Assembly (NCBI GenBank): GCA_028534125.1
Contig: CM052816.1
Span: forward strand, 8,806,001-8,870,000
Direction of reading: 5' to 3'
DNA length: 64,000 bases
DNA from: Lama glama
Taxonomy: Eukaryota
The position numbers and the translations under genes are program-made. Shown in pieces: positions 11,780-39,128 of this stretch; the stretch's first letter is position 1, and every line of letters starts with the position of its first letter. The notes under the pieces are model-generated. The model did not search any database, was not told the DNA's origin, and was given only the letters and a program-made list of their open reading frames with translations.

Positions 11780-12330
11780 CTCATCGCTGACATCCTGGAA
11801 GAGGAGGGCAGGATCTCGCAGCTTCGTGTGTGCGAGGGAGTCGTCGTCACCAGGCCGAGTTCTCTGGCTGTCGCGTCCCCCGCCGCGGCCCCAGCGCCAG
11901 GCGCACGCGGCCCCCAGTGCCGGCTGGCGCGGAGCTGCGCTGAGGTGAGTAGAGGCGACGCTCCCTGTGCTGGGGATTGGCTGTTGGGCCTGGGATTCTC
12001 GGCCCGCCGCGTGGAACCCGCCTGTGGGGGTCAGGAAGCCGCGTCTTAGCGCGAGCTCCCCGGGGGTGTGGGGAGAGAGTTCTAGAAGGAACTCAGCAGG
12101 ACAAGGCCTGTGAGTTTCGAGAAGGCCCCAGGGCCTGACTGGGATCTGTGGCGAAGCTGAGCAAGACCGGGGTGCGTCGCCGGGGGCTGCGGGGCGGCGG
12201 CGGCGCGGCGGCGGCGCGGCGAGAGGAGCTGGCGGGCCGTCCGGCCTCTTCCGCCCGCCCTGCGGCTCCCGGGCGGCCGCGGCCTGTGTGCGACCCGCGG
12301 CCCCTCAGCAGTGAAGGGCCGGCGCGCGGG
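11780..12330. promoter_or_regulatory. CpG island without an identifiable coding gene
   Basis: Dense CpG/GC sequence, a GGCGGCGGCGC run at about 12190-12222, and a plus-strand donor GAG|GTGAGT at 11944/11945. Confidence 0.75.
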
Positions 12331-13641: not shown

Positions 13642-13760
13642 TTGGTGAGGGGGAGGTAATTAGGTTTTTAAATTATTTTTTTAGAGGAGGTACTGGGGAT
13701 CGAACCTAGGACCTTGTGCATGCTAAGCATGCACTCTACCACTTGAGCTCTACCCTCCCC
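13642..13760 (-). mobile_element. tRNA-Ala-derived SINE (Vic-1-like) with target-site duplication
   Basis: Minus strand reads GGGGAGGGTAGAGCTCAAGTGGTAGAGTGCATGCTTAGCATGCACAAGGTCCTAGGTTCGATCCCCAGTACCTCC plus an A-rich tail. TSD ATAGTATTATTT at 13630-13641 and 13767-13778. Confidence 0.85.
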
Positions 13761-14964
13761 ACAAAAATAGTATTATTTGGAGCAAATCAGATTTCTTCTT
13801 GGTCAGGTTGGCTCCAGTCTCTGTGGATGAGGAGGAGGGGGAGCTCATACTTCATAAACATCTTCAATGTGGCCTCTTAGGAAGACATGTGTGGGAGCCA
13901 CCTGGTCTGTGGGAATGTGGTGATCAGACCCCAAGGTGAGGATCCTGGAGCCATGGTTCTTACTGTCTCTACCAACTTCATGAAAAGCACTAGGTTTGTT
14001 TAAAGTTCTAGTGTTGCACCTGGACCACTTCAGGTCTCTGGCATTTAATCAGTTAACGTTTTCCATGTCTATTTAGATGGTCTTCCTTTTTTTAAAAAAT
14101 TTTTTCTGTTTTTACTTTTGGCTAAGGAATTGGCACAAGCCAGTGAACTTGGAATCAGTTCTGGCTCAGCCTTATGCTGTCTGGATGATCTCGGGCTAGT
14201 CACTTCACCTCTCTGAACCTCACCATCCCACTGACCTTCAGGAGCTTTGCAGTTGAAGCCAGGTGCTGCAAATTAAAGTAAGTTATGGAGGCAATATTTG
14301 TAATGAGGTGATGAATGGGGCTTAAGCAGTCACTGGCTCAGAAGGGCCTGGGGCGGCAAAAGGAATCTCAGCACGTGCTTGCGTGCGTATGTGTGTATAT
14401 GTGTGTCTAGAAGTGAGCCCTACTGTTCCTGGACTGGGTGGAGGCAGGCATCACCACAAGAGGGCACTCTAAGCTTTTTTGTCTTCTCCACCTCAATGGA
14501 AACATTTTTCATTTTTCTGTGGCTGCATTCCAAATCAAAAGAACACTTGTGTTTTTTTAGTTTACCTAACTAATTTAGTAAACTTTTAAAAATAAATTCA
14601 TGTACATTTATTCGTTTATTGATAATAATTGATTTGATACTTGTGACCCCTACTGCTTGGCATGCTGGGAAGTGGGGTGGGGTGGAGGCAGAACACATGC
14701 TTCACCGTGTCCTGGTTCAACCACTGCTCAGCTGAGTGCCTGGACACATTTCCCAAGAGCAGGACAGTGGTGAACTTCCAATTCCAGACTCACAGGATGT
14801 TACGAAATGGAGAAAATGGAAAGAAAAGCAACTTAAAGGTCAAGAATACAGTCCGCAACCCTCTTACCTCCAGCACATGGCCTTCCACTTGACCTCATGC
14901 TGTGCTTGAGCCAAAGCCCCATAGGGACAATTCTGGGGTGGGAAGGAGGCGAATCCAGCTGTTG

Positions 14965-15052
14965 AACCATGACCTCAAGAACAGTATTTCCAGGAATCCC
15001 CATCTTAGCATCTAAGGGATTCCTGGGAAAACTGGACCGTGAGGACAAGGTG
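14965..15052 (-). ncRNA. MIR145: pre-miR-145 hairpin (mature miR-145-5p at 15037-15015)
   Basis: Reverse complement reads CACCTTGTCCTCACGGTCCAGTTTTCCCAGGAATCCCTTAGATGCTAAGATGGGGATTCCTGGAAATACTGTTCTTGAGGTCATGGTT. It contains mature GUCCAGUUUUCCCAGGAAUCCCU with complementary arms. Confidence 0.99.
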
Positions 15053-15683
15053 AGAGAGTGGCCGTCAGCACCAAGGCCCTGCCATGTCCCCAAGGACCAG
15101 CTGGAGTTTTCTTCTGCATCCAGCCCCATCTGCAGAAGCCAGCGTGGGTGCCATGTATCTCGGGATGTGGATGAGATTGCTCCGGGAGTAGTAGTGACTG
15201 GAACTTCAAGTGTCCTGGAAAGTACCTTCCCTGTAGTCAAAGGCCATGTTGTCAACTAGAAACCATCTGGTAACTCCCCCCACCCCCACCTCCCCATGAT
15301 TGCCATGGGTCCTGTGTATTCCTGAGTCTTCAGCCAGAGGGAGGGTTTCACTCTAAACTAACTGGACAAATCTGGTTCCAAGTCTCTGTTTGGCAATTTC
15401 CTTGCTGGCGATCTACAGCAAGTCACTTAACCTCAGCTTTCCCCAACTATAAAATGGGACAGTATAGGACCTACGGGATAAAGTGAGATAAATAAAGTTA
15501 TGGGGAAAGAGGAGTAGGAGGAAGGAAGTCCATAGGATTGATGGAAAGTGTTTGGGTCTGTCTTTGCTAAAAGTGACCCAAGATATAAGGACAAGACCGG
15601 AGCAGGATTTGTTATGTTCTCCTCCTGCTCCCCCATCCCCAGGTTCCTAAGTCACATGTAGTCGGTAAGAATATGGATCTGAA

Positions 15684-15772
15684 GGGGGAGTATAGCTCAG
15701 TGGTACAGTGCATGCTTAGCACTCATGAGGTCCTGGGTTCAATCCCCAGTATCCCCACTTAAAAAAAAAAAA
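15684..15772 (+). mobile_element. tRNA-Ala-derived SINE (short Vic-1-like) with poly(A) tail and TSD
   Basis: Reads GGGGGAGTATAGCTCAGTGGTACAGTGCATGCTTAGCACTCATGAGGTCCTGGGTTCAATCCCCAG plus an A-run. Flanked by AAGAATATGGATCTGAAGG and AAGAATGTAGATCTGAAGG. Confidence 0.85.
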
Positions 15773-16500
15773 GAATGTAGATCTGAAGGCAGATAGATTA
15801 GGCTACAACTCTGGCTCAACACAGTCAATGTGTGATCTTGGGTGAGTTACCTAACAGCCTCAGTTTTCTTATCTGGAAAATGGGTCAGTAACACTGCCCA
15901 CCTCCCAAACTTGTTAAAAAATAAAACAAAATTGTGCTTAGCCCAGTAATTTTCCTGTGCTGCTCCTTGCTTATTTGAAGCCCCTGAGAGAGGTGAGGTA
16001 TTTGGGAGATGCCTGGATTAGTTTAGGCAATACCTCAAAGAGTGAAGAACCTAACTCAAAGCCCAGGACTTTTGTCTTTAGCACTGAAAGGATTTTTAGG
16101 AATTGTCCAATGCACAGATGATGACTGGGTTTCAGCTTTGAAACTGGGTTCTAGCTCTCTAGAACTTAGTGTTGAGAAGGATTCTGAAGCAACTGAATGC
16201 TTCAAGAGAGGATGCCTTGACTGATTAGTAGTGTCCACCCTGGGTTCAGAAAGAGAAAGCAGAGTCAGGGTGCTGAGTAATAGCCACCAGTGAGTGCTGC
16301 AACACCTCGTTTTACAGCTGGGCAAACTGGGGTACACAGAGGAGTCGGCACTTGCCCAGAATCACAAAGCAGATCGTGGCACAGGTAGAACTTGAGTCCA
16401 GGAACTTCCTCAGCTGACAAGATGGAGACTGAAAACATTCCCGTCCTTTCCTGGTGCCTGCAAGCACCTCTACCACTTACCGCTTCCAGGCTGCTGGCCG

Positions 16501-16606
16501 GCCGCAGAACAACTTCTCCCTTCCTGAGCTACAGTGCTTCATCTCAGACTCCCAACTGACCAGAGATGCAGCACTGCACCTCAGGCTGGGAGACAGGGCG
16601 CCACGC
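16501..16606 (-). ncRNA. MIR143: pre-miR-143 hairpin (5p 16580-16559; mature 3p 16546-16526)
   Basis: Minus strand contains GGTGCAGTGCTGCATCTCTGGT, a loop, then TGAGATGAAGCACTGTAGCTC. It lies about 1.45 kb upstream of miR-145, as in the known bicistronic cluster. Confidence 0.99.
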
Positions 16607-38628: not shown

Positions 38629-39128
38629 NNNNNNNNNNNNNNNNNNNNNNNNNNNNNNNNNNNNNNNNNNNNNNNNNNNNNNNNNNNNNNNNNNNNNNNN
38701 NNNNNNNNNNNNNNNNNNNNNNNNNNNNNNNNNNNNNNNNNNNNNNNNNNNNNNNNNNNNNNNNNNNNNNNNNNNNNNNNNNNNNNNNNNNNNNNNNNNN
38801 NNNNNNNNNNNNNNNNNNNNNNNNNNNNNNNNNNNNNNNNNNNNNNNNNNNNNNNNNNNNNNNNNNNNNNNNNNNNNNNNNNNNNNNNNNNNNNNNNNNN
38901 NNNNNNNNNNNNNNNNNNNNNNNNNNNNNNNNNNNNNNNNNNNNNNNNNNNNNNNNNNNNNNNNNNNNNNNNNNNNNNNNNNNNNNNNNNNNNNNNNNNN
39001 NNNNNNNNNNNNNNNNNNNNNNNNNNNNNNNNNNNNNNNNNNNNNNNNNNNNNNNNNNNNNNNNNNNNNNNNNNNNNNNNNNNNNNNNNNNNNNNNNNNN
39101 NNNNNNNNNNNNNNNNNNNNNNNNNNNN
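38629..39128. other. Assembly gap (500 N)
   Basis: Run of N; the true size is unknown. Confidence 1.

Follow-up and report, generated by a model that had tools for sequence, protein, structure and literature searches.

Several miRNAs overlap a splice site of their host transcript, and the members of this splice-site-overlapping (SO) class are the systems closest to the locus described here. In miR-34b, according to the excerpted text of Mattioli 2013 (PMC3794580), the pri-miRNA hairpin contains the acceptor of its non-coding host's terminal exon, the branch point falls in or next to that hairpin, and splicing and Drosha cropping are mutually exclusive. The candidate signal in miR-145 has the same layout. 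It differs from miR-34b, in the same excerpt, in that the miR-34b junction is documented by expressed sequence tags (ESTs), in tissues and in minigenes, and in that miR-34b lacks a pyrimidine tract. A similar arrangement is found in miR-205, a conserved miRNA hosted in the lncRNA MIR205HG, with a hairpin that straddles the splice site adjoining the last exon (PMC4561498). There, the fate of the hairpin depends on which terminal exon is chosen, as it would in miR-145. Unlike miR-145, miR-205 was confirmed by transcript assembly under Drosha inhibition and by RT-PCR, and miR-143/145 were not flagged in the same data. A third system, mmu-miR-412 in the Mirg cluster, shows the within-cluster uncoupling proposed for miR-145; in contrast to miR-145, an inverse correlation during development has been shown for it (Melamed 2013, as cited in later papers). 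The position of the junction of such SO miRNAs is reported, in the part of the literature at hand, as not conserved across mammals.

The miR-143/145 pair and its host CARMN have a central part in smooth-muscle identity, in vascular disease and in many cancers. The expression of the two miRNAs is not always in step, and a separate promoter region, located immediately upstream of miR-145, has been reported, in a source available in excerpt, as one route to their uncoupling. A preliminary description of the cluster in Lama glama had proposed another route, namely a textbook 3' splice site whose AG lies within mature miR-145-5p and whose use would destroy miR-145 and leave miR-143 intact. Here we compare this signal with its genomic neighbourhood, with the predicted fold of the hairpin, with orthologous loci and with published transcripts.

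The miR-143/145 cluster of Lama glama

Matches to Rfam covariance models place the miR-143/145 cluster on the minus strand of the window, by which we mean the whole 64,000-nucleotide stretch of DNA that was analyzed; all features below are on this strand unless stated otherwise. The mir-145 precursor hairpin lies at 15051-14966 and matches RF00675 over its entire length (model positions 1-86 of 86) with 112.8 bits (E 9.6e-26). This is above the gathering score of 50 and makes it a member of the family. The mir-143 precursor hairpin, at 16595-16512, scores 111.5 bits against RF00683. Within the mir-145 hairpin, the miR-145-5p arm occupies 15037-15015, its first nucleotide being the G at 15037, and the miR-145-3p arm 14999-14978. 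Two CNNC motifs, CAAC (14962-14965) and CAGC (14959-14962), start 14 and 17 nt past the end of miR-145-3p, a spacing as expected of an SRSF3-dependent Microprocessor enhancer.

A tandem AATAAA at 14607-14620 (signals at 14620 and 14612, which are 345 and 353 nt past the mir-145 hairpin) probably marks the proximal end of the pri-miRNA in the window. The distance is similar to that in mouse, where the pri-miRNA assemblies, as far as the excerpted annotation file goes, stop 412-419 nt past Mir145a. More AATAAA signals occur in the window at 14049 and 13275. The wider region also contains a run of 500 N (an assembly gap) at 38629-39128, where the body of the CARMN gene is expected, and, downstream of the 3' region of CARMN, a GGC-rich tandem repeat at 12181-12221 with a period of 11-14 and about 3 copies.

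When set against ordinary pri-miR-145 processing (RF00675), the window shows no difference: the match is full-length, the basal stem covaries and a CNNC motif follows downstream. This ordinary reading of the locus needs no splice site.

An acceptor-like signal across the mir-145 hairpin

A check of the sequence confirmed every position that the preliminary description had given for the proposed splice site. The branch-point-like motif GCTGAC spans 15069-15064. Its A, at 15065, precedes the putative exon start by 34 nt, and the CTGAC part of the motif matches the yUnAy consensus within the range of 18-40 nt upstream of the acceptor. The C-rich 'pyrimidine tract' (15034-15051) consists of the 5' strand of the pri-miR-145 basal stem together with nucleotides 1-4 of miR-145-5p. 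The candidate acceptor AG (15033/15032) corresponds to nucleotides 5-6 of miR-145-5p, which puts the exon start at 15031 and makes the CAG of the acceptor nucleotides 4-6 of an invariant miRNA. The acceptor has the YAG of canonical U2-type 3' splice sites and, as had been stated, no AG separates it from the branch-like A, the closest upstream AG being 47 nt away. The donor suggested as its partner is also where it was described: GCG/GTAAGT at 16475-16483 (last exon base 16481) agrees with the consensus at 7 of 9 positions, lies 31 nt past the mir-143 model, and would delimit a putative intron of 1449 nt from 16481/16480 to 15032.

A splice-site consensus composed of CAG, tract and branch-like motif is therefore contained in a bona fide pri-miRNA hairpin. 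GCTGAC is the sole part of this signal outside the mir-145 hairpin, with CTGAC sitting 13 nt upstream of the Rfam mir-145 model, and an additional branch-like CTCAC occurs inside the stem, 20 nt upstream of the acceptor AG.

The logic by which this acceptor would affect miR-145 only is sound. Splicing to 15031 would leave the transcript without the 5' basal strand and without nucleotides 1-6 of miR-145-5p. The hairpin could then not form, and miR-143 would be spared. The competition between splicing and Drosha that had been invoked is likewise a known arrangement of SO miRNAs, in agreement with the excerpted text of Mattioli 2013 (PMC3794580).

Strength of the signal and chance expectation

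We scored acceptors with a rough position-weight scheme covering positions -20 to +1, which uses approximate frequencies, is not MaxEntScan, and in which the ranks alone are trustworthy. The acceptor with exon start 15031 scores 1.17 and ranks 867th out of 10,435 AGs on both strands (top 8.3%). Locally, it ranks 33rd out of the 36 sites that score at least 1.0 on the minus strand between 18500 and 12500. Eleven of the 16 positions from -20 to -5 are pyrimidines and only 5 are T, GG occupies positions -7/-6, and T follows at +1. By this rough score, the site does not have a strong U-rich polypyrimidine tract. With such ranks and a T-poor tract the term 'textbook' is not borne out, and the preliminary description, right in its coordinates, overstated the strength of the site.

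We then counted how often comparable signals occur in the window. Of the 10,422 AGs that could be scored, 869 reach or exceed the value of the 15031 acceptor, and 129, 37 and 17 of these are preceded 18-40 nt upstream by YTNAY, CTRAY and CTGAC, respectively, with no AG between. The composite motif, defined as a score of at least 1.17 with CTRAY 18-40 nt upstream and no intervening AG, thus occurs 37 times in approximately 127,000 strand-bases, or once per 3.4 kb. This corresponds to approximately 0.025 expected occurrences per 86-nt hairpin, a figure uncorrected for the free choice of features, and the composite motif, although real and uncommon, is therefore nothing exceptional. The mir-145 hairpin itself prescribes two of the three components, CAG and tract.

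Competing and look-alike splice signals nearby

A much stronger acceptor-like signal lies at 16240-16270 (exon start 16239), with a score of 7.76 and a CTGAC 26 nt upstream. It is just 241 nt downstream of the 16481 donor, a short intron is therefore possible there, and it would compete with the candidate acceptor for that donor. Considered as a motif, 16239 is the best real-looking acceptor in the neighbourhood. Two more acceptor-like sites have their exon starts at 15757 (score 8.37, in the poly-T of a SINE) and at 15470 (score 5.24). Because these three stronger sites all lie between 16481 and 15031, we dropped the pairing of these two as the favoured intron.

The neighbourhood also holds two tRNA-like Rfam matches, at 15686-15757 on the plus strand (50.9 bits) and at 13685-13757 on the minus strand (32.5 bits). 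A poly-A/T run comes after the first of them, which has the appearance of a tRNA-derived SINE located between the two miRNAs. The T-run of this SINE creates the top-scoring minus-strand pseudo-acceptor, 15757.

Closer to the candidate, a second AG inside miR-145-5p (15023-15024, exon start 15022) lies 9 nt downstream of the first one and scores 3.72. Upstream of the hairpin, an acceptor-like signal at 15130-15150 (exon start 15129) scores 0.87 (rank 954 out of 10,435), close to the candidate, and, if used, would keep the miR-145 hairpin intact within the exon.

The mir-143 hairpin is flanked by signals of its own. An acceptor-like site precedes it (exon start 16642, score 2.88, CTAAC 20 nt upstream) and, together with the donor-like 16481, would bound an exon of 162 nt with the whole mir-143 hairpin. 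Signals like these two were found around mir-143 in neither of the two orthologous clusters described below, and the mouse CT26 assembly, in the excerpt available, makes no use of an exon of this kind. On the other side, the donor-like GAG/GTAAGA at 14862-14870 (last exon base 14868) lies 97 nt past the mir-145 hairpin and, with 15031, would bound an exon of 164 nt, nearly the same size as the potential mir-143 exon. Overall, 14 donor-like sites occur on the minus strand of the 6 kb between 18500 and 12500. One of them, CTG/GTCAGT at 16555-16564 (16561), matches 7 of 9 consensus positions inside the mir-143 hairpin, and is another case of a splice signal imitated by a conserved hairpin.

Pairing of the stem and orthologous loci

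The mir-145 hairpin folds identically in contexts of 131, 271 and 451 nt, with a minimum free energy of -49.6 kcal/mol for the 131-nt fold. In the three contexts, the unpaired probability of the acceptor AG is 0.00, 0.00 and 0.01, respectively, and that of CUGAC, which is mostly free, is 0.79, 0.70 and 0.69. The tract is mostly paired, with most positions below 0.1 unpaired and a mean of 0.31. In the predicted fold, single-stranded access is therefore lacking for the AG and for most of the tract. The region of the upstream alternative acceptor has a mean unpaired probability of 0.30-0.36, so that the tract is no less accessible than this region. With mean accessibilities this similar, the argument that the acceptor is hidden depends on the stability and the conservation of the stem.

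To find orthologues, we scanned metagenome contigs with the 23-mer of miR-145 and obtained two loci, L001 and L002; the scans of genome contigs and viral contigs returned 0 matches. Both loci are complete vertebrate mir-143/mir-145 clusters (L001, 1549-2072; L002, 715-2075). The spacing between mir-143 and mir-145 is approximately 355 nt in L001 and 1190 nt in L002, as compared to approximately 1460 nt in the window. Judging from this much shorter spacing, the two loci evidently come from distant vertebrates, presumably as host DNA in environmental or gut samples.

The consensus fold of these three sequences only (window, L001 and L002) predicts 32 pairs. In the segment 15051-15037, 14 of the 15 columns are paired, and all 5 pairs in which both partners changed among the three sequences fall within 15051-15040, that is, inside the 'tract'. 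The A and the G of the acceptor are paired in all three sequences. The 5' strand remains pyrimidine-rich in the two orthologues (9 and 12 pyrimidines out of 16). Both of these distant orthologues lack a YTNAY 18-45 nt upstream of the acceptor and a GTAAGT donor past mir-143.

Published transcripts of the locus

For the comparison with published transcripts, we take the mouse Mir145a hairpin to be at 61647825-61647894 of chr18 and human MIR145 to be at chr5:148810209-148810296 (hg19). Each of these coordinate pairs also co-occurs in papers, that of Mir145a in mouse miRNA papers. The human orthologue of the predicted exon start is then 148810230 (chr5:149430667 in hg38) and the mouse one chr18:61647882 (mm10).

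Chang 2015 (PMC4561498) blocked Drosha in order to stabilise pri-miRNAs, and the assemblies covered here are C2C12 and CT26 in mouse and A172 in the human Drosha-block file. Tables S4/S5 of that study report miR-130b, miR-199a-2, miR-202, miR-205 and mouse miR-670 as splice-site-spanning, and miR-143/145 are not flagged in them. In the excerpt of mouse.gtf, transcript CT26.78030.5 is composed of exons at chr18:61665302-61665529, 61654430-61654538 and 61652243-61652406, and of a terminal exon at 61647413-61650150. This terminal exon of 2.7 kb holds the whole Mir145a hairpin and has no boundary at the orthologous acceptor; it reaches 2.2 kb further upstream, and both hairpins therefore lie in one unspliced exon. 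Loss of Drosha is a condition that the preliminary description had named as a test, and under it the CT26 assembly, within the part of the file that was available, is unspliced here. StringTie assemblies represent dominant isoforms, and a minor junction can be missed in them. In the same excerpt, C2C12.59724.2 is a single block (61647406-61647841) that begins near the 3' Drosha cut. In mouse aorta, the excerpted text of Dong et al. (bioRxiv 10.1101/2020.01.30.927335) reports no reads across the exon 4-5 junction that is unique to the miRNA-spanning Carmn V1.

In human, seven annotated CARMEN isoforms were obtained by capture long-read sequencing and all of them except the precursor C-215 end upstream of the miRNAs (Plaisance 2022, PMC10262180, in excerpt). 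A contiguous cDNA of 2.2 kb that covers both miRNAs has been cloned (Iio 2010, in excerpt). The A172 rows in the excerpt of human.gtf from Chang 2015 (PMC4561498) contain no exon in chr5:148.807-148.812 Mb. In the BodyMap human heart, where Drosha was not blocked, the excerpted data of the same study show two single-exon blocks, at chr5:148808583-148808790 and chr5:148810236-148812390 (hg19). The latter, heart.37510.1, extends to the CARMN 3' end in that excerpt. It starts 6 nt inside the predicted exon, at the equivalent of position 15025 of the window and approximately 48 nt upstream of the 3' Drosha cut. We considered heart.37510.1 as the 3' product of Drosha and dropped this interpretation; the miR-143 block and the mouse C2C12 block start near the cut instead. 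Because it begins inside the hairpin, well before the 3' cut, the heart block fits an exon started at the acceptor better than a Drosha product. Its pattern is as from a hairpin-less, Drosha-resistant spliced exon, which we take as a weak hint, its end being defined by coverage and no junction having been assembled.

Lists and reviews add little to this picture. Table 1 of Mattioli 2013 (PMC3794580), in the part available, reports 17 SO miRNAs derived from spliced ESTs, without miR-145. The table of a review (PMC7369991) labels miR-143/145 in CARMN as 'mixed' and 'intron/exon junction', with no source or position, and this label is another weak hint, in this case of use in human. Apart from it, the literature retrieved nowhere states that miR-145 overlaps a splice site in use. 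Gregorova 2024 (PMC11347158) mentions none of miR-143, miR-145 and CARMN, a paper on SO miRNAs in macaque does not include miR-145, and the excerpted supplements of Pianigiani 2018 (PMC6097652) contain no match. CARMN reviews give no junction positions, and the Plaisance supplement gives no coordinates. A search for the numbers of the orthologous exon start returned only papers on unrelated subjects. Overall, published assemblies mostly argue against the use of the acceptor.

Discussion

We consider it rather likely that what resembles an acceptor arises mainly as a by-product of the pri-miR-145 hairpin, with no dedicated role in splicing. Its CAG belongs to an invariant miRNA, as nucleotides 4-6, and its C-rich tract, as the 5' strand, pairs with a G/A-rich 3' strand in the basal stem on which the Microprocessor (Drosha/DGCR8) depends. 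Only CTGAC is free sequence, and its match to the consensus would be due to chance or to recent drift. On the nascent transcript, the hairpin would fold, AG and most of the tract would be hidden, and Drosha/DGCR8 would crop. The terminal part of pri-miR-143/145 would normally stay unspliced and end at the nearby poly(A) signal, and where a molecule fails to fold or is not cropped, the acceptor may be used as a cryptic or minor 3' splice site. Hairpin constraints thus probably explain most of the signal, and the acceptor is probably not used much. Given its anatomy, the pairing and covariation of the stem, its weak composition and the published mouse assembly, we infer that it goes unused in Lama glama, and our verdict is that acceptor 15031 is cryptic or at most minor.

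The main alternative holds that 15031 is used as a true alternative 3' splice site, so that miR-145 would belong to the 3' splice-site-overlapping miRNAs; the splicing would then be a minor constitutive leak with no regulatory role. An upstream CARMN donor would be spliced to nucleotide 7 of miR-145-5p, giving a hairpin-less and Drosha-resistant terminal exon that accumulates as a lncRNA, and each transcript would be either cropped or spliced. The core signals have the right geometry for this, with a branch-like A 34 nt upstream of the exon start, a CAG and no AG between them, in a composite motif of which approximately 0.025 are expected per hairpin; in addition, the branch-like motif is predicted to be unpaired. 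The human heart block, with its start 6 nt inside the predicted exon and its extension to the CARMN 3' end, and the 'intron/exon junction' label of PMC7369991 point in the same direction, and miR-34b, miR-205, miR-133a-2 and miR-412 provide precedents, in sources available in excerpt. We nevertheless regard this alternative as unlikely. Published assemblies show no junction here, the heart block being a single exon with a coverage-defined end, and the Drosha-blocked mouse assembly is unspliced at this point. miR-145 is missing from both the EST-based (Mattioli) and the assembly-based (Chang) lists of SO miRNAs, the site is weak in composition with stronger acceptor-like sites upstream, and in the predicted fold its AG is fully paired. 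SO miRNAs like miR-34b use buried acceptors that lack a tract, and pairing and weak composition therefore do not exclude use. If splicing did occur here, the second AG (15024/15023, exon start 15022) might be taken instead of the first, with the same effect on the hairpin. It scores higher (3.72 versus 1.17) because of a T-run and a G at +1, and the heart block, whose start corresponds to 15025, begins between the two candidate exon starts. However, the first AG downstream of the branch point is normally the one chosen, the heart block starts 3 nt upstream of exon start 15022, and no junction evidence accompanies the second AG; its use is the least probable of the possibilities considered here.

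The use of the acceptor as a regulated switch, with less miR-145 relative to miR-143 and more of a spliced CARMN isoform as the outcome, is highly improbable. It would share the anatomy of a genuine acceptor, and the mechanism has been shown in minigenes for other non-coding SO miRNAs (Mattioli 2013, PMC3794580, in excerpt; Melamed 2013, as cited in later papers). Yet all the points against a genuine acceptor apply to it as well, and silencing of Drosha or SF3b1 left the inclusion of endogenous SO-miRNA exons unchanged (Pianigiani 2018, PMC6097652, in excerpt). Moreover, a 2026 review of uncoupling (PMC13686912), in the part available, ties miR-143/145 to RNA-binding proteins, editing and 5' methylation and takes its splice-site examples from other miRNAs, and the promoter region directly upstream of miR-145 is already a reported uncoupling route. 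We do not think that the acceptor sets the miR-145:miR-143 ratio. The proposal that its use uncouples miR-145 from miR-143 did not find support: the site is weak, its AG is paired, better acceptor-like sites lie upstream, the branch-like motif is missing from both orthologues obtained and the mouse assembly is unspliced. In its broadest form, with mammalian miR-145 as an unlisted SO miRNA in which the choice between cropping and splicing sets the miR-145:miR-143 ratio and yields a stable 3' CARMN lncRNA in smooth muscle, the idea is very unlikely, if slightly less so than a regulated switch as defined above.

These results carry a caution, as conserved hairpins can imitate splice sites. If the acceptor were used, miR-145 would be a further member of the known class of SO miRNAs, closest to miR-34b and miR-205 and, with respect to uncoupling, to mmu-miR-412. 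A splice site that destroys only miR-145 would, if true, be a simple cis-acting means of uncoupling the two miRNAs and a possible target of splice-switching oligonucleotides.
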